64,000 bases of DNA from Rhynchopus sp. YZ270_cl-10 (taxonomy: Eukaryota): contig OZ037833.1 of assembly GCA_964035575.1 (NCBI GenBank), forward strand, positions 1,240,001 through 1,304,000. Reading direction: 5' to 3'. The notes beneath the pieces were generated by a model that made no database searches, was not told where the DNA came from, and worked only from the letters and a program-made list of their open reading frames with translations. The position numbers and the translations under genes were made by a program. Below, in pieces: positions 1,375 through 63,625 of this stretch (positions are counted from its first letter, which is position 1; the number at the start of each line of letters is the position of its first letter).

Positions 1375-1424
1375 TTGAAAACTTGGTTGTATCAGTGTAG
1401 TCACTCGAGGATGCACTCCACATA
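1375..1424 (-). repeat. ~52-bp dispersed mini-element, family 1
   Basis: Reverse complement reads TATGTGGAGTGCATCCTCGAGTGACTACACTGATACAACCAAGTTTTCAA, matching six other copies in the window. Confidence 0.85.
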
Positions 1425-1776
1425 GTAGACTAAACACTTCTACGGGATACCTGAGTGGCACCATTCCATCATTTGCGAGGCCATGTGGGCAGCCAATCCG
1501 ATGTTGGGCGGCGGCGGCTTGGTCTTACGCGCCTTGAGAGGCGACTCAAAAAAAGTAGCGTACCGTGCGCCTGCGGCGCAAATTTGCAACCCATCCTTCC
1601 CATGACATAGTTTGGCAGTAAAAATGCGCAATTTTAAGCGCATTTTTTTTTTCTTCTTGAAATGTTGCGTACCGTGGCTTCGCTAGAAACTTCCGTTTTA
1701 GCACGGAAGTAAAATTTGCGGAAACTGACGTTAATTACCAACGACAGTGCCATTTTACGGCAACATTTTTTAGAAA

Positions 1777-2641
<865 letters not shown>

Positions 2642-2650
2642 TGAGAGAAG

Positions 2651-14600: not shown

Positions 14601-17600
14601 CAACTGCGGGGGCGGCCAAGTGCTCGACGAACGAGTGCGACTTCCACGAGAAGACGTGTTCCGACGTGGGACAGGTGTGCTACGACCCGGACCTGTCGGC
14701 GCAGTCGCTTGGAGACTGGACCTGCACATGTGTGGCACCGTACGTGGGGTCGCAGGTGGCAGCGGCGGCAAAGTGCCAGGTGGACGAGTGTGAGCTGTAC
14801 GGACACGTGTGCACGGCTGCGGGACAGACCTGTGTTGACGAGGAGAAGGACATGGCGGGCTTCTGGAAGTGTGTCTGCCCGCCACCGAACGAGAAGTTCA
14901 AGCGTAACATGGGTGTGGCAGACTGCGTTGTCGACGAGTGCACGACATGGACGAACACAAGCACCCCGTCTGCGATGCCGTCGAACGACCGGAACGCAGT
15001 GAACCTGTGCGAGCAGGCTGGGCAGGTGTGCGAGGACCCGAACCACAACGCGTCGTCTGCTGGGGACTGGACGTGCACGTGCCCGTCTCCGGGGAACAGA
15101 ACTGCGCGTGCACACGTGGCGACGTGCGATGTGGACGAGTGTGCGGACCCTGCGAAGGAGTCTGTGTGTGAGGCCAAGGGGCAGCGCTGCGTGGACCCGA
15201 ACTGGGAGCCTGGTCACGAAGGCGACTGGACGTGTGTGTGCGTGCCGCCGTCGGTTGGGACGGGGATGCAGGCTGTGGCCGTGTGCCTGGTGGACGAGTG
15301 CAAGACCGAAGGTGCTGTGTGCCAGTCAAGCGGTCAGCTGTGTGTTGACACCAACCATGCGGAGGCTGGGACGTGGGCGTGCGAGTGTGTGGCACACGCG
15401 GGCGTGAACGCGTCGCAGCTGGGAGGACTGGCAGACTGCAACCCGCCGTCGAGCGAGTGCAGAATTGACGCAATCCGCGAGGTGTGCACGTCGTCGAACC
15501 AGGGCTGCTACGACCCGGACCTGAAGGCACACAACGACTGGGTGTGCGAGTGCGTGCCGCCTGCCACAGGACCGCAGAAGCAGGGTGAGGCGACAGTGTG
15601 TGTGCTCGACGAGTGTGAGGAGGAGTGCCCGACATGCGGGAAGTCGGTGTGCGCGGCCGCGGGTCAGACGTGCACAGACGCGAACACGGACGCAGCCTCG
15701 CTGAGCGACTGGACTTGCACATGCCCGACCCCCTCGACAGGATCGAAGAAGGGAGGCGTGGCGGTGTGCCAGCTGGACGAGTGTGCTGCGGTGTGCGACG
15801 GCTGCCCGTCGGACATCTGCACTGCGGCAGGTACGCAGTGTGAGGACACGAACAAGGACGCACGTTCGCCCGGAGACTGGGAGTGCGTGTGCCGTGCACC
15901 TGCCCTGGGACGTGTGACACAGGGCGTGCCGGTGTGCCTGATTGACGAGTGCGAGCAGAACGCACACAAGTGCGCGGATGGGCAGACGTGCGCTGACGCG
16001 AACAAGCTTGCGGCGTCCGAGGGAGACTGGACGTGCACGTGCCCGCCGCCGACGTCTGGAATTGCGGTGGCGAGTGCGGCAGTGTGCTTCGAGAACGAGT
16101 GTCTCGTGGACGACAATGTGAAGACGTGCACTGCAGGGGGACAGGTGTGCATTGACCCTAAGCCGCAGCCGACGAACAAGGGTGACTGGGAGTGCCACTG
16201 CGCGCAGGGGAAGACCTTTGCTGTGGCGGCGGCAGCAGTCTGTGTGCTGGACGAGTGTGTGGAGCAGTGCACGTCGTGCGCGGACAGCGGGGGTGGTAAC
16301 GTGTGTGCGAAGGCCGGGCAGCTCTGCACGGACCCGAACACGTCGCCGGAGAGCACACGTGACTGGAAGTGCCAGTGTGCGGCAGGGGAGAAGGCTGCGC
16401 TTGGTGGCCCTGCGACGTGCGAGGTGGACGAGTGCTGGCAGCCAAGCAACTTTGGTGCACACACGTGCCATGACACACCGCGGACGACGGTCGACGGGTG
16501 TGCGTGCCAGTGTGGCTGGCAGGTGCAGGATGCGGCGCAGTACCCCGGGGCACACGGTGCTGGTATTGAGGTGGGCTGTCTGGCTGGGTGCTGCAACCCG
16601 AACGTCGTGGCGTCGGGGGCGTGGTGCCTGCTGGAGCCTGTGCAGACGACGGCCGTGTGCCAGGACCTCGTGACTGCGGGGGAGATGGTGCAGACGTGCG
16701 CGGTGCTGGCGTCGGGAGTGGCACCGGCGAAGCCGGAGAACCTGTGCACGAAGGCGGGCCAGGTGTGCGTCGACCCGGACACGAGTGCGACGAGCTCTGG
16801 TGACTGGCGGTGCGAGTGCGTTTCGCCGGCGAGCGGAGACCCGAGTGTCGGGAAGGCTGGGTCGTGCAAGATCGACGAGTGCGAGAAGAACGGGCAGGTG
16901 TGCTCTGCGGCGGGACAGCTGTGCAAGGACGCGGACAAGGCGACGGAGAACACGTGGGAGTGTGTGTGCCCGTCGCCTGCGACAGGGTCTGCGACCGGGA
17001 AGGTTGCGGCGTGCGTGTACGTGGGTGAGTGCGAGACGGCAAGCATTGCGGAGGTGTGCGAGCAGGTGGGGCAGACGTGCTACGACCCGGACGCAGCTGT
17101 GACTGGGGACTGGGTGTGCAAGTGCGTGGACCCGGCGACGGGTGTGCCTGCTCTCATGACGACGGCGACGTGTGTGCTGGACGAGTGCACGGCGGAGTGC
17201 CCGACGTGTGCGGACAAGGGGTTCGGAAACCTGTGCGATGTGGCTGGACAGCACTGCGTGGAGTCGTCGACGTCGCCGGCAGACGTTGAGGACTGGATGT
17301 GCAAGTGTGTTGGAGACGCCGTTGGGGAGTCTGTGGCATCTGTGGCCGTGTGCACGCTGGACGAGTGCAAGATGAACAACGGACGCCTGGCACAGCTGTG
17401 CGGTGCGGCCGGGCAGACCTGCAACGACCCGAACAAGGCGGTGCTTGGGGGTCTGAACGACTGGGAGTGCGTGTGCCCTCCACCAAGCATCGGGCGTGTG
17501 ACGGGGAAGCTTGCAACGTGTCTGCGTGATGAGTGCCTGGAGACAGACGTGGCTGCGGTGTGCACGTCGGCAGGACAGACGTGCCAGGACCCGAACACGG

Positions 17601-20600
17601 ACGCACGCAGCACCGGAGACTGGACGTGCGCGTGCTCGGCGAAGCCGGGTGAGACACCGAAGGTGGCGAAGGGGAAGGCCGCAAAGTGCGTGCTGCCGCC
17701 GAGCTCGTGGTGCGTGCAGCACGGCGAGACGTGCACGTTCCTGGGACAGGCGTGCGTGCCCGCGGCAAGCATTCTGGAAGACGGCTCGTGCGCATGCATT
17801 GAGCCGCAGACAGGGCCGACGAAGGTGGGGGCGGCAACAGTGTGCATCCTTGACGAGTGCACGGCGGTTTGTGCGACGTGTGCCGACCACGGTGCCGGTA
17901 ACGTGTGCGACAAGGCGGGACAGACGTGCCAGGAGGGAAGCATGAACCCTGTGACCGGGAAGGGAGACTGGCGCTGCAAGTGTGCCGGGTCGGACATGTC
18001 GGCGGTGGCGGCAGTGGCGGTGTGCACCGTGAACGAGTGTGACACAGACGAGAAGGCAAAGGTGTGCGCAGCTGCGGAGCAGACGTGCACAGACAAGAAC
18101 ACGGCCGGAGACTCGCTGAACGACTGGATGTGCGCATGCCACGAGCCCTGGACGGGGAGCAAGATGCTCGGGGCTGCGGACTGCAAGTTTGACGAGTGCC
18201 TGTTCGCCGGAAGCGAGTGCACGGCGCTGGGGCAGACCTGCTTCGACAAGGACACGTCTGCACAGGTGCGTGGTGACTGGGAGTGCCGCTGTGTGGCGCC
18301 TGCAGAGGGCTTCGCTATTGCGAAGGCAGCGACGTGTGTGTACACGGGGGAGTGCGAGAAGCAGGAGATCGCAGAGGTGTGCACGAAGGCAGGACAGACC
18401 TGTGTGGACCCGAACCCGGCTGTGGCGGACGACTGGGAGTGCCGCTGCGTGTCGCCCGAGGCAGGATCACACACCAGGGGGGCAGTGGCGGTGTGCATGC
18501 TGGACGAGTGCCGTGCGACGTGCTCGTCGTGTGCAACGAAGCCAGGGTCGCTGACACACGCATGCGCGTCTGCGGAGCAGGACTGCATGGACCCGGACAC
18601 AGCAGCGACAAGCATTGCGGACTGGAAGTGTTCGTGCCGTGCGCCTGCGTCTGGGGAGATGGTGGGTGCGGCGGCTGTGTGCAGCGTGGACGAGTGCTAC
18701 AATGCAGAGAACCGTGCGGCGTGCTCGCGTGTGAAGGACACAACAGGGGCGGAGGTGCAGCACTGTGTGGACAAGGACTACACAAAGACCGGGGACTGGG
18801 TGTGCGAGTGCATGTACCCGTACCACGGAACCGCGGGACAGCGTGAGGCGGCAGTGTGCGTGGTCGACGAGTGCACGGCGCCGGAGGCGTGGAGCAAGCG
18901 CCCGAACGGAAACGCGGTGTGTGGGGCGAAGGGACAGACCTGCCTCGACCCTCAGCAGGGTGTGGCATCGGAGTTTGAGAACTGGGTGTGCCAGTGTGCG
19001 GACGGTACTGGGGAGCCGAACAGGGGTGCGCCGTCGACGGATTGCAAGCAGGACACACTGTGTGCGCAGTTCGGGTCTGCATGCGGGCCGCTCGAGATGT
19101 GCGTGGAGAAGGAGGACGTGTGGTCGTGCAGGTGCATTCCGCCCTTCGTGGGTGAGGCTGCTGGGAAGGCGGCATCCTGTGTGCTGGACGAGTGCACGGC
19201 GGAGTGCACGACGTGTGCGCAGCAGGGTGCAGTGCACATGTGCACGCAGGCCGGGCAGAAGTGCGTGGACCACGACAAGTCACCGGACAGCCGTTCCGAC
19301 TGGTCGTGCGTGTGCGAGGTCGGGAAGGGAGAGGCTGCTCTCCACAAGGCGGAGTGCATGGTTGACGAGTGCACGCTGAACGGAGTGACGTGCGAGGGTA
19401 AGGGCCAGGAGTGCGTTGACCCGGACATGCATGCCGAGACAAGCGGAGACTGGGTGTGCCAGTGCATTGCGCCTGCGGCTGGTAAGGCCGTGGCCGGACC
19501 TGCTACATGCCTGCTTGACGAGTGCAACCTGTACGGCGGGAAGTGCACAGTGGTGGGACAGGTGTGCATTGACCAGAACACTGCTGCGGCGAGTCTGAAC
19601 GACTGGACGTGCAACTGCCCGGCACCTTCGTCGGGATACATGTACGCTGGACCTGCATCGTGCACGTACACGGGGGCGTGCCAGGACGCTGCGAACTTGG
19701 ACGTGTGCGCGGATGCGGGTCAGCGCTGCTTCCCAGGGAACTCGTCGGCAGACGACTTCAGGTGTGGGTGCATGCCGCCGTACCGTGGCACTGCTGGGGT
19801 GCGTGCCCCTGCACAGTGCATGATCGACGAGTGCGAGGACATCTGTGCAACGTGCGCGCGCACAAACGAGAAGGCTGTCAACGTTTGCGCGGGTGCGGGC
19901 CAGCGTTGCGAGGACCCGAACCTGTCTGTGCAGAGCCTGGGTGACTGGGTGTGCATGTGCCAGGCCCCGTCGACAACAGCGGCCGTTGCGCATGCTGTTG
20001 ACAGCTGCCTTGTGGATGAGTGCCTTGCCATCACCATGACAGGTGCACGCAAGTGCGACAACTTCAAGCGCTACACGAACGACGGCTGCGAGTGTGCGTG
20101 CGGCTGGAAGGTCAGCGGCATCAACGGCGGCGGTCCCGGCCTTGACGAGAACTGCAACACAGGATGCTGCAACCCGGACAAGGCAAAGGAGGGAGACTGG
20201 TGCATTGTTGCCGACAGTGCCTTCAACAAGAAGAGCGGTGTCTGCAGTGCGCTTATCAGCAAGCAGCAGACGTGTGCGAACGAGCGTGCACCTGCCCCTG
20301 CAGGCGCACCTGTGAGCGAGTTTGTCGACATCTGTGCTGCCTCTGGCCAGCGTTGCTACGACCCTAACCACAACCCAAGTGTGCAGGGTGACTGGGAGTG
20401 CCACTGCACAACCTCTGAGGACTACCACATTCTTACCCCGGCAAAGTGCAGTATGTGTTTTTCCCTCCCTCTCTTCTTCTTCTTCTTCTGGTGGTTTTGT
20501 TGTTTTCCTTTTTCCTTTTTATGATGAGTTGTTGGAAAAGTAACTGTGTTTCTGAGTTAACCCACACGCACACGCCACACTTGGCGCATACCCCGCACTT

Positions 20601-24728: not shown

Positions 24729-24957
24729 CACGACGGTGAAGTAACGGGTGTTACAAGTGGAGTTACAAGTGAGTTACATGTAACTTTTGTTACATGTAAC
24801 TCACTTGTAACCCACTTGTAACCCACCAGTTACAACCTGATTTTGCCTGTAATTCATGTATCCCACTTGTAACTCACTTGTAACTCACTTGTAACGGTTT
24901 TTCACTTGTAACGTTACTAGTAACTTCACTTGTAATGTACTATACTTCACCGTCGTG
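24729..24957. mobile_element. 229-bp MITE, CACTA/EnSpm(CMC)-like
   Basis: 15-bp TIRs CACGACGGTGAAGTA, 2-bp TSD TC, internal GTTACAAGTG/CACTTGTAAC subterminal repeats. A second copy lies inverted at 42659-42887. Confidence 0.85.
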
Positions 24958-27174
24958 TCTGTTACCCCCCCCCCCCCCCCCCCCACTTACCCCTCTTTTT
25001 TAAAAGAGAGTGTCTAAATATGCACCGGATCGGTACCCAACTTTGGCCCATCTAATTTTTTAAAAAAAATTGCTGATTCCATAGGAAGAAAAAAAACCGT
25101 TTTGAAACGATTTGTTTTTCCCTTCAGTAAACATCAAAATTTAAAAAAAAGGCATAAAACAGCAAAAGACCCCCCCTACCCACCACCCCAACAACAATGA
25201 CAAAAAAATCCCTTGTACGTGAAATTGTGTTTTTTTTCTTCTTTTTCTTCTTTTAAAGAGAATGGGTATGATTGTGGTAGGTAGGGCACATTGTCCCATC
25301 AAAGTCTTTGTGTACTTTTTGTGATTTTTTTTTTTTTTTTTTTGTTTTTTTTTTTTTGTGTGCGCAATCTGCTTCATATTTTGTTTTTTTCTTTGATGCA
25401 GTACAATCACAATTTCCCCCCGTAATGAAAACCAAGCACGAGAGGCTTCTGTTGTTCTTCATTACCCCCCTTTTTTTTTCCTTTCGTCACACGGAAGCCA
25501 GGCCTCGCCTTTTTCTCCAATGCATTTTTTTTTTTTTTTTTTTTTCTGTTTTTTCTTCTTTTTCCATTCTGTATTGCGGGAAGGATAGAGTAGGGCTGGG
25601 GCAGTGGAATAGACATCGTTACTAATACAAAAGCCCCGCGATCGTTATGTTCAGGCGGACCCAAGCGTCAGCCGGATGAGATATGGTGTGGTGTATTTGT
25701 TTGTTTGTTTTCATTTTTTTTTTTTTTTTTTTTTCCTTCTTTTTCTTTTTCCTCTCTCCCGTCTCTTGCGTATAGCAAAAAAAAAAAAACAAACCAGAAG
25801 ATGTATTTCACCGCAGTTTTTTTTTTTAAACCCACGAGACCAAAAAAAAATGAGTGGATAGGGTATGGTCTTCCCCTCGAAACCCAGTTTTCCCCCTCTT
25901 TTTTGTTTTGGATACGGAGTGCCTTTTGTTTTAAATAAAAAGTAATTTATTGCTTTTATCTATTCAAAAAAAAAAATATTTATTTATCAAAAACCCCCCC
26001 CCTCTTTTTTGTTTTATTTGTTGCTCTTTTATTTCTCTGCATGGCCATATGACAACTGAAGCCGTTGTACTGTGCTTACGCAGGATTTAAGACTATTTTT
26101 TTTTGGAGGTGACTCAGGGGGGTGTACCTAAGCAACGAGAGGCTTATGTTCATCATCTGACCATTTTTTTTTCCCTCTTTTTTTTAAAAAGGTGTCTATT
26201 TTTTTTTTCTCTCGTATTCGTGTGCGCATTGTGTAGTCTGTGACAGTGTAGCCCTTTCCTCCACACTCACGTACCCAATTTTTTTTTAAAAGATAAATGA
26301 GTGACCCTGTGTACGTGATGGCTTTTTTTTAAAGTTATTCTTGTTGGTTTAGTGTATCTGTTATTAGAGGTATATGTCTGTGAGGAAGAGGAGACACATT
26401 CATCTGAATTTTTCCTTTTTTTTTTTTTTTTCTCGTTTTCTTCTTTCGTTTTTTTTTTTCTCTTTTTTTTTCTTCCTGTCATCCCTATTCCCTTTCTTAT
26501 CTCTGCAATGGCCATCACAAATGTTTTGTGTTTGACGAGATCTGGGCTTTGCAAGGAAAAAAGATGGTCAGGATATCCTTTTAGAAGGAGAAAAAAAAAG
26601 GGGGAGGGAAAGAAAAAAAAAAAAAAAAAGGAAAAAAAAAAAAAAAAAATGGGTACCAATGTTTTGTATTCACCTACCCTTTATGTCCTTGTTTCTTTTG
26701 CTGAGGAAAATATAGGAAAAAAAAAAGACCAAATTTAAAGATAAAATAGGTCTTTTTTTTCCATTCCGTTCTCCCCCAAAAAAACCCCCCATTTTTTTTT
26801 TTGTTTGATTTATTTTGTTTATTTTCAAAAAAAAAGAAAAAGGAAATTTTTTTGCAACAGAACATAGCAAATAAGTTTTTTTTTTTGAAAAAGGTATTTC
26901 AGAATGGGATATTTTGCTTTCCCGTGGTGTTACATCATGTACCTTTTTCCCCCTCACCCAAAAAAAAAATCAAAAAAATAAAAGGCAATTGGAGTTCTTC
27001 TCAATTTCATGTGATCTAATAAAATATGCTCCCGGCTTCTTTTTTTTTTTCCCCACACAAAACACCATAACTAGGAGAGAGTTTTGAGGATACATTTTGT
27101 TCCTTTTTTTTTTTTTGGAATCTTCCCGCGATCTTAAAACATTGCGTGCCAAAAAAAAAAATTTTTTTTTTAGT

Positions 27175-27226
27175 TATAGTGGAGTTCATCCTCGGGGTGT
27201 CTACACTAATACAACCAAGTTTTCAA
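27175..27226 (+). repeat. ~52-bp dispersed mini-element, family 1
   Basis: TATAGTGGAGTTCATCCTCGGGGTGTCTACACTAATACAACCAAGTTTTCAA followed by an A-tract. Confidence 0.9.
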
Positions 27227-28723
27227 AAAAAAAAAAAAAAAAGAAAAGAAAAAGAAAGAAACTGTATCTGTGTTGTGTGGAAGGAGTCGATTTTATTTGG
27301 TCACATTTTTTATTTTATTTTTTTATTTTATAAATAGAACCACACTTGCCTATTTCCGTTCTCCACCGTTTTTGTTTTTCCTTCTCTGCCGCCTCCCTCC
27401 CTCCCTCTGTGCACATAAGTCTTTGGGATGACCTCAAAAACGACGAGGATATCTCACACAAAAGGCTGACCTAGATATTCATCAGGTTGCCAATGACTAT
27501 CATATGGTATAGCTGGTTTGGGGTAAAAACCCCAAGCAGGCAAGTCCGACATAAGGCCAACATCACATTTGTTTTCTGAAGTACTCTGAAATGTTGTATT
27601 TTTCAGGCGATTGTCGACACACAAAAAAAAACAAAAAAAAATCACACAGAAACCAACCCTCTTATGTGCATTGAGGGTTGGGGCGGAGGTATCAGAATTT
27701 TCATTTTTTTTTTTTGAAACTATTAGGGTAACTGCTGTCATCGCAATATAAAAGAACAAAAAAGGAAATTTTGGACGTGAGTGCATTTCCAAAAAAAAAA
27801 AAAAAACACCCCTTTTTTCTTTTCTACCCAACATTTATTTCACATTGTCTGCAATCCTCGAGTGAGGTTGCATTAACGATTCCACCCTTTTTTTTTTTGT
27901 CACATTTTTTTTTTTTTTTTTGTTCAGGTGAACCAAGCGCAGTACTTTGCGCTTATCTTATCCAAACTCATTTTTTTTTTTTTTTTGTTTTATTTATCCC
28001 GTTCTTCCTGTTCTCCCCCCCTCCCCTCCCCCTTTTCCCAGCGTTCTCACACACACCACTTCCATTTCGTTTCCTTTCCTTTAAGGACCTTTTTACGTTG
28101 TCCAAGCGTTTCAAGTCCTTCGAGAGAGGTGTTTCCTTCTTAGCTTCAACCCCCTGTCTCCCCCCCGAAAACCCATCCCAAACAATCCCCATTCCTGCCA
28201 CTAAAACAAAAAAAAACAAAAAGCAAAATCCATGCCCAACCCTACCCCAAAGGAACATATCAGGGGATATAAAAAAAAGAAAAAATCCTTCCTCATCTTC
28301 TTTTTTTTGTGCTTCATTGACTTTCCCACACTGCAAAAAAATGGGCAGATGGCACCATGACCCTCCATCAGGCCTAATTACCGTATTCGCACCACCCTCT
28401 GTATCTTCCCTACTACTAAAATGCTTTTTTCGGCAAAAAAAAACAAAAGCCAAAGCAATACAGAGAGAACCAACCAATTTTTCATTTTAACAAACGATTA
28501 ATCAAACCCTCCTAGCCTATACGCGCCTGATACACGGGGTAAAAATCAGGTGGACTACCCTCTGTATCTTCAAATGCACACCGTCTATCTTGATACACTC
28601 TCTTCTTCCTCCCCTTTTTGACTCTACACCAACAGCAACACAAGGAGGCCCCCCTTCTCCCTCTCGCTCCCCTCCCCTCCTCCCCCGCCCAGCAACTGGA
28701 CTGCGTGTCAAAAGGGTGCAGCC

Positions 28724-37939: not shown

Positions 37940-40279
37940 ATGGATGACGCAGACGCACTGATTGCACAGGCGTCAGATTTGGTGGAAGGGCTTTCGGAGG
38001 GTGCTGGGACACCACCACCACCACCACCTGGCACGGACACGGGTGCTGCACATAACAACACCGTGGAGGTGGGGAGCGTACCGTTGGCAACGCTGCCGTC
38101 TTCAGCACTGCCCTCAGCACTGCCCACCTCAGATGCAGGGCGCACGCTGCCCCCCTCCTCTGCACCCACCATCACCCCCCTACCCGTACCCGTCTCAGAC
38201 GTAGCAGTTGTTGAGGCCGCGGCCCCAGCACACAACCCAGACGACAGCTCAGACGACGAGGAGCTCAAGGCCCCCGACACAGGGCTTGTGTTGGTGCCGG
38301 ACAACGTCGCAGATAAGCCTCTTGATGAGCATCCGGGATTGGTCCCGTTGGTACCGGGTATGGAATTTTTTTTTCCCCCTATGATTACGTGCAATGCTAA
38401 AAGGAAATTGAACACCGTACCCTACTCCCATCCTTTTTTCCATTTTTCTAATCCGGGGCGGGTTGGAGTAGAGCCACACTTCACCGACAGGTTGAGGTGT
38501 GTGCGTTTCACCACAACCTCTCCCTTTTTGCCTTTATTGTTTTCATTGCTTTATTGTTTGCGGGGGTGGGGGGAAAACATAAAAAGGAACAGTGGGGTGC
38601 GGTTTCAATTTTGTTTCTTTTTTTCAGGGTCACTGCATTAGAAATTCCCCCAAAATCCCCCATTTTTTTTTTTTTGTATTTTTTGAATCTTTTTCCATTT
38701 ATGGCTACCTGCTTGGACACATCTCCCCTACCGACCCCTCCTCCCCACACAAAAAAAAAAAGCGTTTTGTATAGTGCATCCTCGGGAGACCTACACTAAT
38801 ACAACCAAGTTTTCAAACAAAAAACAAAGAGTGGAAATCATAAACAAAAACATTTTGAAACACCCCACAGGCCACGAGGCACCCTGCTGCAACGGCATTG
38901 TGTACGGCTTCGACGTCGACGATCTCTCCTTCAAGCCATGGCGCCAGGAAGGCTGCGACGTCCACGACTACTTCAACTACGGCTTCAACGAAGAGCTCTG
39001 GCGTGCACACTGCCTCTTACAGCCTAGGGGGAAGGAGGCCTACGAGAACAGGGTATGTCCCCCATCCATAGCATCTTTTTTTTTTGAGGAATCTGGTGAT
39101 ATTTTTTCCACATAGTAGTGCCTGTCTGCCGATGTAATGTGGTGAGGCGTTTGCACTTATCTTTTTTTCTTTTCCCGCTTTTTAACGTCGTATTTCTCTT
39201 GTTTTTGATGAAATTAGTTGTAATTCTGTAACGTAACTCCACGCTAGCCCATCACACCCACCACCCAACAGGCCATCGAACAACAAAAGAAAGCCAAGCG
39301 CCATGCCAAACAGCAACGTGACGCTGCCAAACGCAAGCGTTCCCCTGAGCGCGACACCCTCCCCACCGTGCAGGCTGCACAGGCTGCAGAGAACGCAAGC
39401 ACGGCACTCATACAGCGTCTTATCGCAAGCAGGTCCGCTGGGAACCTGCCGCCATCGTCCACAGGCACACCGCCACCCACATCCTCATCCACACAGCCGA
39501 ACCTGCTAGCTGCATTGGGAGCACCGATTCCTGCAGGCCTGGCCACAAACAACAACAACAACAACAACAACAGCAACAACAATAACAACAACAACACACT
39601 TCTCAACACCAACTTCCAAGCCCTCCTCAACCAAACCGGCGAGCCGCCTAACAAAATGCCACGCACAGAGGAGCCAGGCAAGAACGACAACTCGAACCAA
39701 AACCAAAACCTTGCGGACATGCTGCGGTTACGTGGTGCGCCTGCGTTTGGGGGGAACTTCAACAACACCAACGTGATCGGGGACCGCAAAGGTGGCAAAG
39801 GAGGCTTCAAGGGCGGCAAAGGCGGGAAGGGCGGCGGCAACTTCGAGATGCCCCAGCAGCCGATGTTCCCTACCAACCCGCTTGGCGGGAACTTCCAGGC
39901 ACCACCCCCGATGGGCGTGCCTGGGCTGGGTGCGGGGTTGCCGGCACCAGGGGTTGGGGGGGAGGCGGGGGCGCCGGGGATGGGTGTGACTGCTGGGGCT
40001 ATGCAAAGCTTGATGAACTTGCTTACGGGGGCTGGCGGTGGTGTGGGCAACATGGGTGCGGGGGGAGGAGCAAACCCCCCTCTCCCAGGGGGCCCTATGC
40101 CGATGGGCAACATGCCCAACATGCCAAACATGCCCAATCTCTCCAATATGCCTAACATAGCAAACCTGCCAAACCTACTCCCAGGCAATCTACCCATGCC
40201 TATGGGTAACACCCTCAGCAACCCACCCCTCCCTGCCTTCCCAAACTTCCTCGGGAACAGGAACAATACTAACATGTGA
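37940..40279 (+). CDS. FIP1: FIP1-like polyadenylation factor (~535 aa). Exons 37940-38357, 38871-39052, 39272-40279
   Basis: Fip1 motif FDVDDLSFKPWRQEGCDVHDYFNYGFNEELWRAHC in exon 2, low-complexity N/G/P-rich C-terminus, consistent intron phases. Confidence 0.85.
38470..38524 (+). mobile_element. Degenerate fragment of the YR-retrotransposon terminal repeat (A/B junction) in FIP1 intron 1
   Basis: AGAGCCACACTTCACCGACAGGTTGAGGTGTGTGCGTTTCACCACAACCTCTCCC versus AGAGCCACTCCTCACCAAACAGGTCGAGGTGTGTGCGTTTCACCACAACCTCTCCC at ~60142-60197. Confidence 0.85.
38759..38816 (+). repeat. Dispersed mini-element, family 1 (with AAAGCGTTTTG 5' extension)
   Basis: Matches the consensus; the 5' extension is shared with the 60648-60709 copy. 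Confidence 0.85.
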
Positions 40280-42505: not shown

Positions 42506-42658
42506 GTATCACGTATGATACGTATTTGCCACCCCAGGGGACAGCAGGTCCTCAGAGGGACATATTATTCACAGTTCTTCTCATGCCCGCGCAAAAACGA
42601 ATACTCTCATGATATTGTGTGTGTCTGTGGGTCACAACAGTTTTGTACTGAACAGGTA

Positions 42659-42887
42659 CACGACGGTGATGTACAGTACATTACAAGTGAAGTTACTTGT
42701 AACGTTACAAGTGAAAAACCGTTACAAGTGAGTTACAAGTGAGTTACAAGTGGGATACATGAATTACAGGCAAAATCAGGTTGTAACTGGTGGGTTACAA
42801 GTGGGTTACAAGTGAGTTACATGTAACAAAAGTTACATGTAACTCACTTGTAACTCCACTTGTAACACCCGTTACATCACCGTCGTG
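42659..42887. mobile_element. 229-bp CACTA/EnSpm-like MITE, inverted copy of 24729-24957
   Basis: TIRs CACGACGGTGATGTA, 2-bp TSD TA, near-identical reverse complement of copy 1. Confidence 0.85.
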
Positions 42888-54576: not shown

Positions 54577-57500
54577 ATGCCCGAACTCAAAGTAGGCTCG
54601 GACACCTCGCATCTGGGAAGTGGGCTTATTGGGACACCGCCGGACCTGCCGGTCTCGCCTGTGGCTGATAGCGCAAATGTATGGCAAAAAAAAAATACTG
54701 AATTTTGAAAGGCTTAAACTGGTTTGTAAAGTTGATGTGGAAAAATGGACACAAATTAATTTTTGACTCTAAAAAAAGAGTACTTCTTTGCCTTCTTTGC
54801 ATGAGCTCGACTGAGATGCGTTTTAGTACGTTTCAACTGCTCTTCTTTTGTACTACAATTTCTGACTGAGTACACGGTGTTGGGTTATCTTACCAATATT
54901 ATTTTGTCACCTCATGAAATGAAGGAGGAAATAGAAACGAAGCATTTTGAACACACTTTGCGGTTCTAGAGACGAACCGCGCTGCAGAGCCACTCCTCAC
55001 CAAACAGGTCGAGGTGTGTGCGTTTCACCACAAATCTTACACAACCTCTACAAAAATAAAATGTCCCGGGCAGACATGCGTCTGGACGATGTCAAGTGGG
55101 AGGAGATAAAGGTGGTGTCGGAGGTCCCCAAGGGAGCTTTGGCGCCGACGCAAATTCCGGACTGTGTGTTTCCCCAGTGCGGTGAAACACACAGTGACGG
55201 AGAATCGGGCACGTGCCGTATGTGCGGTAGGCGGACGACGACCGCATGCCTCACCGCCAACCTGCAGGCTCATGGGGACGCACTCGACACTTTCTCGGTC
55301 GGGTTCAAGGACACGACGTGGGTTTGTCCCGTGTGTGCAGTACGGGTGCACCAGGGGGTACAACAGTGGGATATGCGTGACAAGAGCGAAGGTAAGGAGG
55401 CGGAGCCAGACCAGCAAGGAGGGCTTCTACAACGGGTAAAGGACCCCGCATCCCAGCAACTTTTCGAAGCTCTTTTGGCGGAGCGGGAGGCACATCGGCA
55501 GGAGCGCGAAGAAATGAGATTGGAGAGAGATGAGGTGACGCGGGGACTGACGGGAACCCTCATCCAGAGGGTGTCGTCATGGTACGGCCGAATGCGCTTC
55601 CCGGCGATGCAACAGATGGCGCGCCATGCCCTTTACGAGAGGTATGGTCGCGGCGCGGAGGACGCAGGTACCGCCGCTTCGGGGACGGAGCACGAGATCC
55701 GCACGCTGTATGGCGTCATTCTTCCCTTGCTCCCTTTGGTGGTGGCCCATCCGGAGGCAAGGGAGGCGGTGCACAGGGGGGTGTTGAGGATGGAGTCCGT
55801 GCGTCTCCGTACGTATTACGGACACGATGCAGCGGTCTTGTGGGAGACCAGGATGCAGCACATCCTGTGTGCGGACCTGACGGAGCAGCTGCTTCGGGCA
55901 GTTACGGCGCAGGCCCAGACCGCGGGGGAAAAGGAGGCCGAGCAGAGGAAGAGGAGGAGAATTGAAGGGGACTCAAATTTTGCGCAGGGAGACGTTAGGT
56001 TCGGACAGAAGGGGGGAAAAGGGGGAAAAGGGGGAAAGGGGGGGAAGGGGAAGAAGTGACAGTCCCACCCACCCACCCATCACGAGGAACTGCTACGGGT
56101 CGAGGGGGAGAAGGTGTTGTGTGCGCAGCAGCCGCAGCAGAACAGACTAAACTACGTAACTGCGACACCAAATCACACCACGAAACAAAATCCGAAGAAA
56201 GCAGATGGCAGCGTACTGCAAAACATACTAAACTTCAAAGATACAACACCAACTCACAACACGAAGCAAAATCCGAAGAATGGCAGCGCATTGCAAAACA
56301 TACTAAACTACAAAGATACAACACCAAATCACAACACGAAGCAAAATCCGAAGAAGGGCAGCGCATTGCAAAACATACTAAACTACAAAGATACAACACC
56401 AACTCACAACACGAAGCAAAATCCGAAGAAGGGCAGCGCATTGCAAAACATACTAAACTACAAAGATACAACACCAACTCACAACACGAAACAAAATCCG
56501 AAGAAAGCATGTGCCAGCGCACTGCAAAACATACTACGGGGAGAGGGGGAGAGGATGCAGGGACGGACGGCGGACAGGGTGGAGACGGGGCTGCAGCGGA
56601 GGTTACGGCAGGAACCGTGCACTCTGGGGAGACCGCGCAGATACGAAGGGGGTCACCTCACGCTAGAGGAGAGGGACAAGATCACCACGAATGCAAACCT
56701 TATCCTCGACCAGGCTTTGGCGAAGAGTACGTGGGGGAACATAGCGTCGTGCTACCGCCGTTTCGCGGAGTTTCGCAAAGCATGGGAGGAAGCCGAAGGC
56801 GTGCTGGACGTTCCGACTGCGATCATCTTGTGGGTATCCAAGAAGCTAGAGATGGACGGCATAGCTCACAGCTCTGCGCTGGCTTACACGTACGCGATCT
56901 CTTCTGCGCGCAAACACCTCTTGGAGAAGCCGGTCGAAAGCACGAAGCTGGACGCTTTCCGGAGGGGTTTACGGCGAATGGGAGCCGAGGTTCCGAGGGT
57001 GCAAGCCATACCGGCGACAAGGGAGGAAGCGGAACAAGCCATGCGAGAGGAAAGCGACCCCGAAGTGCGTCTAGCGATAGGTTTGATGTGGTACGGAGCT
57101 GCAAGACACTCAGACGTGATGAGCATCGCCGCGAGGGAGGTAACGACTCAAGGGGATACATCGGCGATCACCTGGAGAGGAACCAAGAACGATCCCTTTG
57201 GGAAAGGACAGACGACGGGACTGACGCTGGACAAGGGCATGACGCAGCTACTACACAGGGCGAAACGAGGGAACCAGGGGCAACTTCTGCAACACGCATC
57301 CTATTTCAAAGTAGCGAAGGCACTGAAGAAGGTCAACAAGAAGCTGACTCCACACAGCCTACGGCGGGGGGCAATACACAGGCTTGTCACAAGGGACGTG
57401 GAGTTGGAAGACGTGTGCAAGGTGACGCGACACAAGACCGTGGAGGGGCTTCTGCAGTACGCGCCGCTGGCAGCAACGACACTGGTAAAGAAGACGGCCG

Positions 57501-60500
57501 CGATCTCTCAGCTCCTATGAGAAAGTTGCTTGGGGTGCAGCGTTTCCCACAGCAAACACAGTCCACCATACGGCGAGTGTCATTCAGCGAGATCCTGACT
57601 CCGTCTGTACAAGCATACGATACATCAAATGAGGAACCAGACTCTTACTCAGCGGGCTTCGAGGCGTGGTACGACAACGATTTCTCGGTGGAAGTGGAAG
57701 GGGAACACGTACGGCCGGATTCCAGGAGGGAACCCAGGGGACAGATGGCACGGATCTCGTCGAACCGAATGGACCTGGACGCGATCCGGAGGATGGATGC
57801 CGAGGGGGAGACAGATCAGGTACTGGATGTGATCACCAACTTTGATAGATTCATGTCGCTGTTCACGGAAAAGCCCCCGAACAAGCTATCACGTGGTACC
57901 TCCCGACACATGGCGCAATACGCGAGTGCACTACGCGAATGGGGAGTTGTCGAGGCTGCTGAAGGAGGTGACGGGGTGGTGCTGCCCGCTTTCACAGTGG
58001 CGAAGAAGTCGGGAGAACTGAGATTGGTGGTGGACGCCCGACGTCTAAACCGGATAATGGTTAGGCCTCCTGAGATGCGGCTGCCGCTTATCCGAGATGT
58101 AGTGCGCGACATCGTGGTCTCGGAGGCCGTGTGCGTTGCAGACGGAGTCTCGTACTTTTACCAGATCCCTCTGGCTCACGAGATCCGTAAGTACTTCTCG
58201 CTGAGACTGGCGGGCGCACGGGGAAGTACGGAGGATGTGCAGCTGGCAGTGCTGTGCATGGGGTGGTCATGGAGTCCCGCAATAGCACAGCGTATCTCGA
58301 GGGTTTTGGTGGGACGACAGAACATTGCGTGGGTGGACAACTTTCTACTTCTGGGAAAAAGCAGCGCACTCGCAGCAGAGGAGTACAGGAAGTTCAAAGG
58401 GAGGTGCGACACGGCTCAAGTGGAGCTACACGAAGAAGAAGGGGGGAGACCGCAACAGCGTTTCGAAGCACTCGGGCTGGAATTCGATCTTACTGTGAAA
58501 GGCTTCAGATCTACAGAAAAATGGGTGGCAAAGCTCGTTGAGTCGGCGGAGGTGAAGGCAGCTATCGAAGGAGGAACTTCGCCGCGGGCTTTCTTCAAGG
58601 TGGTAGGATCCATTGTGTGGTGGATGTACACCCGTGATAGACGTTTGTGTTTCTTCCCGAGTATGATTGGAGCGGTGCGGAGCGTAGCTAAACACGCCAC
58701 TACTGAACAGAGTTGGGATCACAGTGTAACGATACAGCAAGGCGCAGTGCGGGAAATAAAAGGGTGCATAGAGGAAATCTGCGAGAACGTGTGGGTTCCT
58801 CAGAAGGGACTTGGGACGGCGACACTGGTGGTGTGGACGGATGCATCTAGCACTGCCTGGGCGGCGGTCACCGACTGGCGACAGGGGGCACAGGGAGCCT
58901 TCCAGAGCACAGAGAAAGAACATCACATATTTTTGAAAGAAATGTGGGCGGCATTCATGGGAATTAGGCTGGCGAGCAGTTTAGGGTTTACCGGAGGAAC
59001 CCTCACCCTGCGCATCGACAACCTACCGGTGGTGCGATGTCTTGAGAAGGGCCACTCGGGGAACTACCTCGCAAACCTGATGATGCAGGAAATGTTCCTA
59101 CTCGCGGACCGTAAGGGGATGGCGGTGCGGCCACTGTGGGTATGCACGGCGGAACAGGTGGCTGACGAGTTCACGCGAGGATCACAGATTGAGCAGATAG
59201 TGGGGATTTAATTGAGGGGTGCGGGAGGGTTTTTTGTTGGGGGGGGGGGGGGGGGGGGGTGTTTTTTCTTTACTTGTTTTGTTTTATGCGGAATGTACCG
59301 CCCGTGGTTGGCGTATAACCGTTTTTTCTGTGCAAGTACTATCCCTAGAGTGGGAAGGTACCGCCCGAGTGTGGCATATAACCATTACGTGTGTGCAAAG
59401 TAAGACCCCGAGAGTGGGAATGTACCGCCCGTGTGTGGCAAAAATCCGTTTTTTCTGTGCAAGTACTATCCCTAGAGTGGGAAGGTACCGCCCGAGTGTG
59501 GCATATAACCATTACGTGTGTGCAAAGTAAGACCCCGAGAGTGGGAATGTACCGCCCGTGTGTGGCAAAAATCCGTTTTTTCTGTGCAAGTACTATCCCT
59601 AGAGTGGGAAGGTACCGCCCGAGTGTGGCATATAACCATTACGTGTGTGCAAAGTAATACCCCGAGAGTGGGAATGTACCGCCCGTGTGTGGCATGAAAC
59701 CGAACTGTTGTGAAAAGGAATACCCCGAGAGTGGGAAGGTACCGCCCGGGTGTGGCCGGTATCCGTTTTGTCTGAAATAAAATAACTTAAGAGTAGGGGC
59801 GTTCTTTCCGACCGAGAGTGGCAATAGTTTTTAAAGGGACCGATTACACAAGAAGTGGCAGTGTACATACTGGAGTGGTAGTTTGCGTCTGAGAATGACA
59901 TGAGAGCGACCAGTGTAAACGAACAGCCTAGAGGGCAACAAGATTATGAGAAGGCTGAGGGATCGAAGCGATCCCCAGTCCCAAAGGGGGTTGGGTGTGT
60001 GCGTTTCACCACAACCTCTCCCATGGGTTTTATCGTGTGATGAGTGTTAAGTTTCTATTTTGTCACCTCATGAAATGAAGGAGGAAATAGAAACGAAGCA
60101 TTTTGAACACACTTTGCGGTTCTAGAGACGAACCGCGCTGCAGAGCCACTCCTCACCAAACAGGTCGAGGTGTGTGCGTTTCACCACAACCTCTCCCATG
60201 GGTTTTATCGTGTGATGAGTGTTAAGTTTCTATTTTTCTTTACTACTTTGATCTGGTTAGAGCACTACACCACCACCACCACACAGGCACGGCATGTGCG
60301 CGCACGCACCTACACCACCCTGACCGCACCACCAGACATGGCAGTGCAGAAGCTGCACGCAACCACGTCGGACTACAACGCCAGCGCCTCGGAGACAGAC
60401 GGTGCCTACCCTGTGGGCACACTAGAGGTGTGTGTTTAGCAGCATCCCCCCTCCTCCTCCTCCTCTTCCTCTTTTTTTCGTGCCAAAAATTAAGATTGGC

Positions 60501-62211
60501 TTCCACACCGGAGCCGCTTCCACGCTTTCTACACTTTTGTTTAAGATACGCACCTGAGGCTTGTGTCTACCTTTTTTTGTCCACTTGCCTCTCGACAAGG
60601 TTGGCTTTGAGAACAACGGAACTTCCTCATAGAGGGGGTTTTCCCCCTTGAAAACTTGGTTGTATTAGTGTAGACACCCGAGGATGAACTCCACTATACA
60701 AAACGCTTTACCCCTTTTTGTCAGGACCCCCTCAACCTCCTTAAGAGCATTTGACGTCCTTTTCGGCGCTTTATAACACATTATTAAAACTACCGTGCCA
60801 CTTTCAATCTGTTCCCTGTACCCCCCTCATCCTCCACCCACAGGGCGCACTGCAGTTCAACGAGATCTTCCACCACTGCCTCACCTCTGGCAAGCGCCCT
60901 GCACAACGTGCCTTTCTCTCTAGCTGGAAGAGCTTCATGCTTGACGAAGCAGAGGCACACTACAAGGCTAACCCCGACGACTACATCGCGGTATGCACGT
61001 GGTCCCCCTTCAGCCCCGTCAGGCTCTTTAGATAAGGCAACGAAAGGAGCAGAGCGCCAAAGGCGTGACGTTACTTTTGATTTACTTTCTTTTTCCATTG
61101 CGTTGCTGTGCCATTAACTCTGTTACACGAGAGGCACAGTCGTCTTTCAAGTTTTCTTTTGTGTCCACCACACCCCTTCCCCCCTCAGCTGTGCTACGAC
61201 ATCTCTGACTACGAGGAGTGCTTCTGGAACTACCGTACCAACGCATACTGCACACCTGAAGAGGCAGAACAGTTTGACGAGGTGCTGGAGCAGGTCTTTG
61301 CGACCAAGGGCAGCTTTCTGGACGAGGCCGTGCAGGACAAGACCACATCGCACTTCACTGCTGCGTGCGGGGCGAGCGTTGCTACCACATCGATGCAGGG
61401 CTGGCGCTCTGCGAATGAAGACGCGCATGTCTTAGAGCAGCTTCAGCCTGGGTGTCTGCTGACTGCGATTCTAGACGGTCATGGCGGGTCTCGTGTCGCA
61501 GAGCACTGCGCACGGCACCTTGCGCGTCACGTGGCAGCGCATCTCCCTGACATCGACTTCTCATCCAAGCCTGCCACATCTGCCGCACGCAGCCCTCTGC
61601 AAGCCGCCCTCCAAGCCGCCTTCCTTGCTGTCGACGACGACGTCGAAACCAACATGAACCCCGACCACTACGGCGCAGCAGGCACCACCCTCAACGCACT
61701 CCTCCTCACACCACACCACTACGTTGTCGCCAACACGGGAGACTCTCGCCTCATTGTCATCCGCGAAGCTGCAGGCACCGCCTCAGTCGAACGCCTCAGC
61801 CACGACCACAAGCCCGACTCCCCAAGAGAGCAGGCACGTATCACAGAGGCAGGTGGGCATGTTTCCGATGGTAGGGTTGAGGGGCTGCTTGCGGTGAGTC
61901 GCGCGTTGGGTGACTTTGATTTTAAACAGGCAGGAGGGTTGGATCCGTGCCGTCAAGAGGTAACAGCGTTTCCGGATGTGGAGTTGTGTGAGCGGCGTCC
62001 AGAGGACATCGCGGTGCTGCAGGCGTGCGACGGCATCTGGGACTGCATGAGTGATGCGGAGGTCGGCGACTTCGTTGTCTCACGCCTCCAAAAAGGCCTC
62101 CCACACACCGAGATCGCAGAAGCCATCTGCAACCACTGCCTTGCCCCTGAAATATGCGAGTCCGGATTAGGCACAGACAATATGAGTCTGCACCTTCTGG
62201 TTATGCGGTGA
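54577..62211 (+). CDS. Protein phosphatase 2C (PPM family), ~470 aa. Exons 54577-54678, 60287-60427, 60844-60990, 61189-62211
   Basis: MQGWRSANEDAH, ILDGHGG, AGTT, ANTGDSR, DHKP, LAVSRALGD, ACDGIWD and GTDNMS motifs in exon 4. Upstream exons join in phase 0 via GT...CAG introns; exon 1 is the least certain. Confidence 0.85.
55061..56059 (+). CDS. Gag-like ORF1 of the YR retrotransposon (332 aa)
   Basis: Cys-rich zinc-finger-like N-terminus (CVFPQC..CRMC..CPVC), coiled coil, basic (KGG)n tail; first ORF of the element. Confidence 0.75.
   Translation: MSRADMRLDDVKWEEIKVVSEVPKGALAPTQIPDCVFPQCGETHSDGESGTCRMCGRRTTTACLTANLQAHGDALDTFSVGFKDTTWVCPVCAVRVHQGVQQWDMRDKSEGKEAEPDQQGGLLQRVKDPASQQLFEALLAEREAHRQEREEMRLERDEVTRGLTGTLIQRVSSWYGRMRFPAMQQMARHALYERYGRGAEDAGTAASGTEHEIRTLYGVILPLLPLVVAHPEAREAVHRGVLRMESVRLRTYYGHDAAVLWETRMQHILCADLTEQLLRAVTAQAQTAGEKEAEQRKRRRIEGDSNFAQGDVRFGQKGGKGGKGGKGGKGKK
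56145..56537 (+). repeat. Internal tandem repeat, ~5 copies of 75-81 bp
   Basis: Units start at 56165, 56246, 56321, 56396 and 56471. All periods are multiples of 3. Confidence 0.95.
56555..57520 (+). CDS. Tyrosine recombinase (frame is open from 56060 and is the same frame as gag)
   Basis: Catalytic set R (GAARHSDV), K (TKND), HxxR (PHSLRRGA), H (TRHKT) and Y (LLQYA) is complete. Confidence 0.92.
   Translation: MQGRTADRVETGLQRRLRQEPCTLGRPRRYEGGHLTLEERDKITTNANLILDQALAKSTWGNIASCYRRFAEFRKAWEEAEGVLDVPTAIILWVSKKLEMDGIAHSSALAYTYAISSARKHLLEKPVESTKLDAFRRGLRRMGAEVPRVQAIPATREEAEQAMREESDPEVRLAIGLMWYGAARHSDVMSIAAREVTTQGDTSAITWRGTKNDPFGKGQTTGLTLDKGMTQLLHRAKRGNQGQLLQHASYFKVAKALKKVNKKLTPHSLRRGAIHRLVTRDVELEDVCKVTRHKTVEGLLQYAPLAATTLVKKTAAISQLL
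57517..59211 (+). CDS. Reverse transcriptase-RNase H (frame is open from upstream of 56056)
   Basis: FTVAKKSGELRLVVDARRLN, DGVSYFYQIPL, LCMGWSWSP, WVDNF; RNase H WTDAS...LKEM...RIDN...VADEFTR. The ATG overlaps the YR stop (ATGA). Confidence 0.92.
   Translation: MRKLLGVQRFPQQTQSTIRRVSFSEILTPSVQAYDTSNEEPDSYSAGFEAWYDNDFSVEVEGEHVRPDSRREPRGQMARISSNRMDLDAIRRMDAEGETDQVLDVITNFDRFMSLFTEKPPNKLSRGTSRHMAQYASALREWGVVEAAEGGDGVVLPAFTVAKKSGELRLVVDARRLNRIMVRPPEMRLPLIRDVVRDIVVSEAVCVADGVSYFYQIPLAHEIRKYFSLRLAGARGSTEDVQLAVLCMGWSWSPAIAQRISRVLVGRQNIAWVDNFLLLGKSSALAAEEYRKFKGRCDTAQVELHEEEGGRPQQRFEALGLEFDLTVKGFRSTEKWVAKLVESAEVKAAIEGGTSPRAFFKVVGSIVWWMYTRDRRLCFFPSMIGAVRSVAKHATTEQSWDHSVTIQQGAVREIKGCIEEICENVWVPQKGLGTATLVVWTDASSTAWAAVTDWRQGAQGAFQSTEKEHHIFLKEMWAAFMGIRLASSLGFTGGTLTLRIDNLPVVRCLEKGHSGNYLANLMMQEMFLLADRKGMAVRPLWVCTAEQVADEFTRGSQIEQIVGI
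59290..59770 (+). repeat. Tandem array of eight 63/64-bp units (127-bp higher-order dimer) in the element 3' region
   Basis: GTACCGCCCG at 59295, 59358, 59422, 59485, 59549, 59612, 59676 and 59739. Confidence 0.95.
60648..60709 (-). repeat. Dispersed mini-element, family 1, in PP2C intron 2
   Basis: Reverse complement reads AAAGCGTTTTGTATAGTGGAGTTCATCCTCGGGTGTCTACACTAATACAACCAAGTTTTCAA. Confidence 0.9.
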
Positions 62212-63198: not shown

Positions 63199-63625
63199 CA
63201 TAGATACAGAATGCGCATCATGCGCAAATTGTGTAAAAAACACAAATTGTCATGCGCATATTTTTTTGTGTTTTTTCTAAGAGAAAAACACAAAATTTTG
63301 CGCATTTAGAAAAACACACAAAATTTTGCGCGTCATGCGCATTATGCGCATTCTGATGCGCATATTTTTTGTGTGTTTTTCTAAAATGCGCATGTTTTTT
63401 TGTGTTTTTTTGGTATGCGCATCACACATATGCGTTATGCGCATACCAAAAAAACACAAAAAGACATGCGCATGAAGAAAAACACAAAAAAATATGCGCA
63501 TCCACTTTTGTTTTTTTGTATGCGCATGACATAAAAAAAACACACAAAAAACATGCGCATAACACAATTATGCGCATTATGCGCATTATGCGCATCATGC
63601 GCATGATGCGCATTCTCTAGCTATG
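63199..63625. mobile_element. 427-bp MITE with CATAG termini and many TGCGCA motifs
   Basis: 28-bp TIRs CATAGMTASAGAATGCGCATCATGCGCA (2 mismatches), inserted in an A-tract. Confidence 0.8.

Follow-up and report, generated by a model that had tools for sequence, protein, structure and literature searches.

An intact retrotransposon with two open frames at its gag end

We analysed a 64,000-nucleotide (nt) window of the Rhynchopus sp. YZ270_cl-10 assembly (contig OZ037833.1, positions 1,240,001 to 1,304,000; coordinates below are those of this window unless a locus is named). Positions 54900-60236 are occupied by an intact 5.3-kb VIPER-like retrotransposon encoding a tyrosine recombinase (YR), with its genes in the order gag-like, YR and reverse transcriptase (RT)/RNase H, all on the forward strand. 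The site under study is the end of its gag gene, where ribosomes may be directed into two overlapping enzyme frames.

The gag-like open reading frame (ORF1; 55061-56059) encodes 332 amino acids (aa) and ends in TGA. Its product has N-terminal Cys pairs but no CCHC box, and carries a tail of KGG repeats. We found 24 homologues; the name gag is assigned by position, there being no Pfam match above cut-off, and a search of a protein atlas with Gag gave no usable match. Named homologues of RT come from Diplonema papillatum, Flectonema and Rhynchopus, and those of Gag from Diplonema papillatum and Rhynchopus.

The YR gene continues in the gag register. Its frame (56060-57520, 486 codons) is separated from gag by one TGA in the context TGA-CAG-TCC (56057-56065), a candidate readthrough site and the lone stop in frame before 57518. 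The first ATG of this frame lies at 56555, leaving a linker of 165 codons after the gag stop. The linker consists of tandem repeats, with an array of 75/81-nt units (56137-56536) that is open in both frames and whose unit lengths are all multiples of three; two sister proteins with fewer linker units (P0041, with one unit fewer, and P0073) keep the frame. The recombinase domain matches PF00589 with an E value of 2.6e-5, below the curated cut-off, and the motifs R (57098 ff.), K, HxxR, H and Y, presumably the catalytic residues, are all found.

The RT gene lies in the -1 frame, which is open over 1070 codons (55999-59211; 1051 codons when counted from the gag stop). About 500 of these codons form a spacer over the linker and the YR gene, followed by RT (motif WVDN), RNase H and a TAA at 59209. 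Because the preceding -1 stop is a TAG at 55996, the stretch 55999-56056 is open in both the gag and the -1 frame and is the sole place where a -1 slip evades the gag stop. Within it, three heptamers in gag register, G GGA AAA (56014), G GGA AAA (56023) and G GGA AAG (56032), together spanning 56014-56038, are candidate -1 sites. Further downstream an ATG of the RT frame overlaps the YR stop as ATGA (57517-57520), an arrangement that is not conserved. The coordinates in a preliminary description of this junction, including the in-frame gag and YR genes, the single TGA at 56057-56059 followed by CAG TCC, and the three heptamers in the KGG tail, all proved correct.

Two contigs from DNA-type runs bear on the accuracy of the junction: a 231-nt contig of run X1 covers 55908-56138 and a 2748-nt contig covers 56471-59218, both without a difference, although each source run may be the window's own. 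As far as these contigs show, the junction is not an assembly slip.

The open -1 frame exceeds chance and appears to be a passive spacer

The openness of the -1 frame across YR, proposed in the preliminary description to continue into RT/RNase H, is beyond chance, with no stop-free frame in 5000 synonymous shuffles of YR. The shuffles produced on average 8.5 stops over 56555-57517 and 11.7 over 56060-57517, where none is observed, whereas the -1 frames of gag and of RT hold the expected number of stops (8 and 19, respectively). The ATGA at the YR stop is uninformative alone, since any TGA that follows an A yields ATGA in this frame pair.

Other copies of the element were viewed through proteins and sequencing-run contigs. 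None of the sixteen single-base differences seen in sister contigs creates a stop, whichever frame is read, but they are not evidence, as 11 such linker changes would miss stops 34% of the time. Within the clade to which the window's element belongs, the proteins P0004 and P0045, the latter an ORF from a diplonemid transcriptome, have N-terminal RT extensions that score as -1 overlaps of YR (z 9.8 and 11.6, 15 shuffles). The same score is 3.1 for the window extension and within 1.2 for the controls, with an unexplained 3.7 for the +1 frame of P0046. No sequence likeness was detected between the window's spacer and the extensions of P0004 and P0045. In 12 of 13 pairs, those with RT data, four-fold sites diverge as fast in the YR core (0.52, 646/1241) as in the RT core (0.56, 780/1397), and the spacer therefore appears to be passive.

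The sister gag protein P0076 has one KGG unit fewer and the same end point. P0073 and P0048 appear to represent a decayed copy whose YR frame is broken and whose RT frame contains a stop, and P0049 was called from the internal ATG. The D. papillatum 'Gag-Pro-Pol' models P0042, P0043 (whose cluster has 29 members) and P0044 join gag, YR and RT; these may reflect gene-model introns that bridge the frames.

Closer relatives keep the overlap and distant ones lack it

Relatives were retrieved from metagenome contigs scanned with an alignment of 27 RT proteins, and the best 80 of 153 matches were taken as 79 loci, at 26-38% RT identity to the window over the best segment. A viral contig collection gave no match, with either the protein or the alignment as query. 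A YR match was missing from 8 of the 60 best loci; others end before the junction. Forty-nine loci had at least 150 YR codons for counting the overlap. In all 38 closer loci (L003-L059) the -1 frame has no stop over the YR core, where 3-13 would be expected in each, while all 11 distant loci (L061-L076) carry 4-24 such stops and have their ORFs apart.

For the junction itself we left out 9 loci with at least 90% RT identity to another locus; the gag end is then visible in 33 non-duplicate loci, in six of which the contig end cuts gag after 22-154 codons. These were classed by the enzyme frame that continues gag: the 22 loci of class I have the window's wiring, and in the 11 loci of class II gag and RT share a frame.

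Several side observations concern the sample. Eight loci (L001, L002, L010, L014, L016, L034, L057 and L060) lack a YR match on their contig and have RT ORFs that reach 700-1130 codons through long N-terminal parts; these are possibly natural gag-RT fusions or YR-less derivatives. In eight others (L009, L013, L021, L023, L024, L040, L043 and L045) the contigs are circularly permuted, RT preceding gag and YR, an order that split direct repeats, tandem copies or circles would each produce. A genome contig collection gave one distant locus, L080; this locus and P0018 are RT relatives in records labelled as bacterial metagenome-assembled genomes and may stem from binning contamination.

Most class I junctions carry a candidate leaky stop context, and most a candidate slippery heptamer

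At class I junctions the gag stop is TGA in 20 of 22 loci and TAG in the other two. TAA does not occur (0/22, and 0/33 over both classes, vs 23/87 true YR and RT ends). The stop is TGA-CT in 17/22 loci vs 1/87 true YR and RT ends; counted as TGA-C the figures are 17/22 vs 9/87 (Fisher p = 1.5e-9, a value that, like the other junction statistics, overstates independence because the relatives share ancestry). A canonical heptamer in gag register lies within the last 15 gag codons in 13/22 loci, for an expectation of 3.7% (15 in 5568 other gag codons), and the two wrong-register controls gave 1/22 and 0/22. In 21/22 loci the RT frame opens 13-247 nt 5' of the gag stop and stays open. When the loci were grouped into nine clusters at 50% identity, TGA-CT was found in most members of six, and the heptamer in half or more of the members of five.

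By the definition of the class, no stop interrupts the YR frame between the gag stop and the YR domain in any of the 22 loci, a stretch of 22-228 codons; the first ATG in this frame may stand anywhere from +3 to +165. No ATG precedes the YR domain in L039 and L049, and in L015 there is no ATG in 514 RT-frame codons.

RNA structure 3' of the stop occurs in some relatives (L020, L032, L040, L044 and L054), and a consensus fold of eight class I loci gave a stem of 9 pairs, one of them compensatory. In addition, seven loci (L013, L020, L023, L025, L031, L038 and L040) keep the motifs GGTCTCCC ... GAGGACCC 15-70 nt after the gag stop. The two motifs are able to pair, and a pseudoknot with a variable first stem is possible; stem 1 is strong in L020 and L040 only.

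Class II junctions have the reverse wiring

In class II, gag is in frame with RT, and YR lies in the +1 frame. Canonical heptamers are absent (0/11), which fits the model developed below, because a gag-RT pair in one frame needs no -1 slip. Eight class II loci have TCC, ACC, TCT or AAG before a TGA stop; their +1 frame continues uninterrupted past this stop, and most have a long 3' stem (TGA positions: L017 933, L022 966, L028 890, L030 1849, L033 1002, L035 403, L037 858 and L052 70). The remaining three have TAG-GGA with a strong stem or pseudoknot-like pair (L042:977-1040, L045:2593-2685 and L046:1409-1455). In L046 the +1 frame is open, the stop reads CCC-TAG, and 2/20 shuffles gave a stem pair as good. 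Single folds of class II are stable (mean z -2.18, 5/11 below -2); a consensus fold of eight class II loci gave nothing, the alignment being poor.

In a tree built by a quick method without a clade test, and without named VIPER proteins of kinetoplastids, the class II loci occupy three separate positions, and those with TGA form the sister group of some class I loci. The window's element clusters with proteins of diplonemids and away from every scored junction locus.

A model of three outcomes at one junction

The two frames, the single stop and the heptamers are present in the window, and the arrangement is conserved across the family; the overlapping-frame junction is a real, family-wide feature. 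From it we infer slippage, readthrough, the product sizes and a packaging purpose, as follows. Ribosomes would start at the gag ATG, and most would end at the TGA at 56057, giving Gag of 332 aa. Some would slip by -1 at G GGA AAA, 11-14 codons before the stop, and traverse the linker and all of the YR gene as a passive spacer, stop-free but not change-free, to give a Gag-spacer-RT/RNase H protein of about 1383 aa. Others would decode the TGA as sense and yield Gag-YR of 819 aa. Fusion to Gag would bring both enzymes into the particle in small, constant proportions, with no need for a protease or for a promoter of their own.

Judged from sequence, the -1 shift to RT is likely to operate in this copy and readthrough to YR is nearly as likely, while the full dual mechanism, readthrough to YR together with the -1 slip to RT, we regard as probable. 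Both routes had been proposed in the preliminary description, and the relatives support them strongly: the open -1 frame, TGA-C and the heptamer all recur at the frequencies given above. The third route proposed there, entry into RT by reinitiation at the ATGA, did not hold up, as that overlap is not kept (5/40).

We lean slightly towards a broader reading, in which all VIPER-like elements, from diplonemids to Trypanosoma cruzi, would use one three-way gag-end junction whose wiring was swapped in evolution, the YR region of about 500 codons doubling as a stop-free RT spacer. One set of elements would reach YR by readthrough and RT by a -1 slip; the other would read through to RT and, in the manner of antizyme, shift by +1 at that stop to reach YR. 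The +1-type sites behind this swapped wiring are the eight TCC/ACC/TCT/AAG-TGA loci and the one CCC-TAG locus.

A number of observations weigh against these proposals. On their own, the window heptamers are not significant: when the low-complexity KGG tail was recoded synonymously with the element's codon usage (20,000 trials), at least one heptamer arose in 62% of cases and three in 6%. The window's slip sites end in AAA or AAG, not AAC, and its stop departs from the family pattern in reading TGA-CA instead of TGA-CT. A 3' stimulator, suggested for 56040-56150, was not found: folds, a pseudoknot scan and a stem list over 56021-56160 revealed neither a stable structure nor a pseudoknot, and local folds 3' of the junction have z values of +0.7 to +2.4. 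Nor do class I loci have a general structure there (mean z -0.44, 4/22 below -2). Internal ATGs exist in the window, at 56555 in YR and at 56509, 56782 and 57517 in the RT frame. Among class I loci, 9/22 lack a canonical heptamer, four of the nine having xxA AAC abutting the stop. In L007 and L012 the RT frame opens only 8 nt past the stop, so that these would need readthrough followed by a slip, or another route, and L038 has a gag-frame stop 24 codons upstream. In class II, the +1 frame of L042 and L045 is closed at the junction, despite a long stem in both. The junction statistics, moreover, are drawn from family branches other than the window's closest clade. The family contributes more to the case for this copy than do the copy's own, atypical signals.

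Alternative explanations

The strongest rival would keep the -1 slip to RT but have YR made from its own ATG, by reinitiation or leaky scanning, with TGA-C acting as a slow stop that aids the slip. Most like-wired elements do have an ATG before the YR domain (17/20 checked, the window included), L042 has one at the start of its YR ORF, and in T. cruzi VIPER the gag TGA is immediately succeeded by an ATG (PMC6681497 supplement; this and the other papers cited here are drawn on as far as their available parts go). A slow stop is also known to boost frameshifting (PMC9841425), but the same source has UGA-CUA favour readthrough over shifting. Moreover, L004, L018, L026, L027 and L043 keep TGA-CT although their heptamer, 7-11 codons upstream, lies too far away to profit from a slow stop. 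An own start for YR would also leave without an account the variable position of the ATG, its absence ahead of the domain in L039 and L049, and a YR frame that, if partly by class definition, stays open to the gag stop in every class I locus. We consider this rival unlikely, if worth keeping in mind. Separate messages for YR and RT, whether trans-spliced with a spliced leader or cis-spliced, are less likely still. Such messages are usual for euglenozoan genes, and the open frames would then be N-terminal extensions ahead of internal ATGs. Essentially all D. papillatum mRNAs bear a spliced leader (PMC10161547), alternative ORF3 starts have been drawn for VIPER (PMC5146736), and the D. papillatum models P0042-P0044 join the three genes. 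The window has a C-rich tract ending in AG at 56061-56086, C-rich like host acceptors; the acceptor at 56086 is nonetheless GAG, not C/TAG, with 2 T in 25, and no pyrimidine tract precedes any AG in 56087-57760. Splice signals are not conserved at the junction: of 20 like-wired junctions, three have GT across the stop and four have AG at most 4 nt after it. Splicing also leaves unexplained why the frames are open at the gag end, why heptamers are in register there and why the stop is TGA-CT.

Termination-reinitiation at the ATGA would give an RT product of 564 aa, which has all RT and RNase H motifs. The ATGA, however, occurs at 5/40 YR stops (window included), about chance for 22 TGA stops, and many relatives have no RT-frame ATG until 57-181 codons further downstream. 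In one clade (L017, L028, L030, L033 and L036) an RT-frame ATG does stand 4-5 codons past the YR stop, and a minor role there is conceivable; as the route to RT in the window, reinitiation is very improbable, not least because it leaves 500 open upstream codons unexplained. Least credible of all is the absence of recoding, where the TGA would be a fresh nonsense change in one gag-YR ORF, or a reassigned codon, and the open -1 frame an accident of composition. The linker is indeed T-poor (11%), which lowers stop counts, but codon-keeping shuffles still produce stops, the sister gag P0076 stops there too, and a stop stands at the gag end in all 33 scored junctions. Reassignment of TGA was rejected, as TGA is a genuine stop in the host, ending 4/7 long ORFs checked, and a 5959-codon host ORF has 125 Trp and no in-frame TGA.

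Element ends and other features of the window

The element is bounded by split direct repeats. Repeat A1 (54900-55033), at the left end and starting with TATTTT, is identical to A2 (60056-60189) over 134 nt, and B1 (59994-60061) is identical to B2 (60169-60236), at the right end, over 68 nt; since neither pair has a mismatch, the copy is young. Loose contig ends cluster at 60235-60237. No target-site duplication was found at the element ends, the shared sequence being the TATTTT hexamer only, which marks both ends of the element as well as the B1/A2 joint and may fit recombinase integration without target duplication. Inverted terminal repeats and an internal complementary region, as in DIRS1, are absent from the element, all its repeats being direct. 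There is no methyltransferase domain match in it either, and the RT/RNase H ORF stops 17 codons past the start of the last RNase H motif. A non-coding tandem array of 63/64-nt units (59290-59774) lies 3' of RT, and its unit lengths are not all multiples of three. Over the terminal repeats (54891-55081 and 59994-60236) contig depth is several hundred-fold above that of the body, with many variants and loose ends, and a fragment of the terminal repeat is also found at 38470-38524. This excess, which is not a copy number, likely reflects a large family of short SIRE-like derivatives.

Elsewhere in the window, the 5959-codon ORF (2645-20524) contains four VWA-type stretches, and the genes flanking the element show GT-AG-type interruptions, which together with the named homologues of RT and Gag point to a probable diplonemid host. 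Two 237-nt sequences in inverted orientation (24729-24963 and 42651-42887), 97% alike and each internally palindromic, are probably two copies of a small inverted-repeat element. A short dispersed repeat of 52-64 nt occurs at 60648-60709, 27175-27242, 38759-38816 and 1359-1421, and a 150-nt palindrome at 63355-63502.

Comparison with known systems

The closest known layout is that of VIPER. The window shares with the VIPER elements of T. cruzi, Bodo and Crithidia the order gag-YR-RT/RNase H and the A1...B1-A2-B2 repeats, and in both ORF2 comes right after the ORF1 stop while ORF3 starts earlier in the -1 frame. In the T. cruzi consensus, ORF1 spans 169-1509, YR 1510-2517 and RT/RNase H 1386-4214 (PMC5146736). 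VIPER differs in its kinetoplastid hosts; the window has a diplonemid-like host, no CCHC box and a tandem-repeat linker, the CCHC box being absent also from Gag of Bodo, Angomonas and Crithidia VIPER (PMC6681497). By these structural traits, and in the way it appears to work, the element is VIPER-like.

In their available parts, the VIPER papers describe overlapped ORFs and split repeats without proposing readthrough, slippage or any other translation model (PMC6681497, PMC12278014), and they let each ORF begin at an ATG of its own (PMC6681497, PMC5146736, PMC12278014). By eye, however, sequences in the supplement of PMC6681497 show A AAA AAC 9 codons before the gag TGA in two T. cruzi copies, G GGA AAC 8 codons before it in a Bodo saltans copy and A AAA AAA 7 codons before it in a Crithidia copy. 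TATE elements have gene order and split direct repeats as in the window; their ORF2, of about 600-1090 codons, overlaps ORF3 solely at its end or is free of overlap, whereas the window's RT frame covers the whole YR frame. Two Bodo TATE copies hold all three genes in a single ORF (PMC6681497), and fused enzyme forms therefore do occur.

DIRS1 differs from the window in having inverted repeats and a methyltransferase, and in Ngaro elements YR comes after RT. Long overlaps of YR and pol are known among such elements (PMC3266345, PMC3783388). No such translation model appears in the available parts of PMC8547959, PMC3783388, PMC3266345, PMC7192593, PMC10161547 and one Chlamydomonas preprint, and a review of frameshifting (PMC5009743) has, as far as its available text goes, no mention of DIRS or tyrosine recombinase. 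Full-text searches turned up no publication that describes recoding in VIPER or in any other YR retrotransposon; Goodwin and Poulter 2004/2005, Poulter and Butler 2015 and Repbase notes, outside the texts searched, may mention frameshifting. Each recoding type and the ORF layout is already known. The preliminary description knew of no report of this combination; the overlapping three-ORF layout is in fact the published one of VIPER, but no translation account of it was located. Specifically, we could not find a description of two alternative gag-end routes into overlapping enzymes with wiring swapped between branches.

The stop contexts can be set against the named readthrough classes, namely type I (UAG-CAR-YYA), type II (UGA-CUA/CGG) and type III (UAG-G with structure), and against the UCC-UGA site of the antizyme +1 shift (PMC3159437, PMC9841425). 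Among the relatives, UGA-CUN is found in 17/22 class I loci, UGA-CUA being itself a named class (PMC3159437, PMC9841425), and UAG-G in 5/33. In L042, L045 and L046, TAG-GGA with structure resembles type III (MuLV-like) readthrough, here leading to RT, and the UCC/ACC/UCU-UGA sites of class II with an open +1 frame are similar to the antizyme site. The window's UGA-CAG-UCC fits no class exactly and has no 3' structure; it is UGA-C only, and it has 5/6 bases of CAR-YYA, but after UGA.

The VIPER, TATE, DIRS and Ngaro papers that we searched leave the expression of ORF2 and ORF3 unaddressed, and our model offers a testable answer for VIPER-like elements that also accounts for the odd full overlap of the RT and YR frames. 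If it is true, the annotated ORF2 and ORF3 starts of VIPER and some Diplonema 'Gag-Pro-Pol' models would be wrong, and the junction would offer a natural example in which termination, readthrough and frameshifting compete at a single site and each of the three products is required. The approximately 30 diverged junctions would then form a panel in which signals (UGA-CUN, UAG-G, -1 heptamers and UCC-UGA) are swapped. The general principle is familiar from the gag-pol recoding of retroviruses and LTR (long terminal repeat) retrotransposons, where a leaky stop or heptamer at the gag end (UAG in MuLV, or a -1 heptamer) sets a low ratio of enzyme to Gag (PMC5009743), the UGA of Tca2 being an example from an LTR retrotransposon. 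In those systems one event, or two in series, leads to one polyprotein, whereas here two alternative events would lead to two overlapping enzymes.

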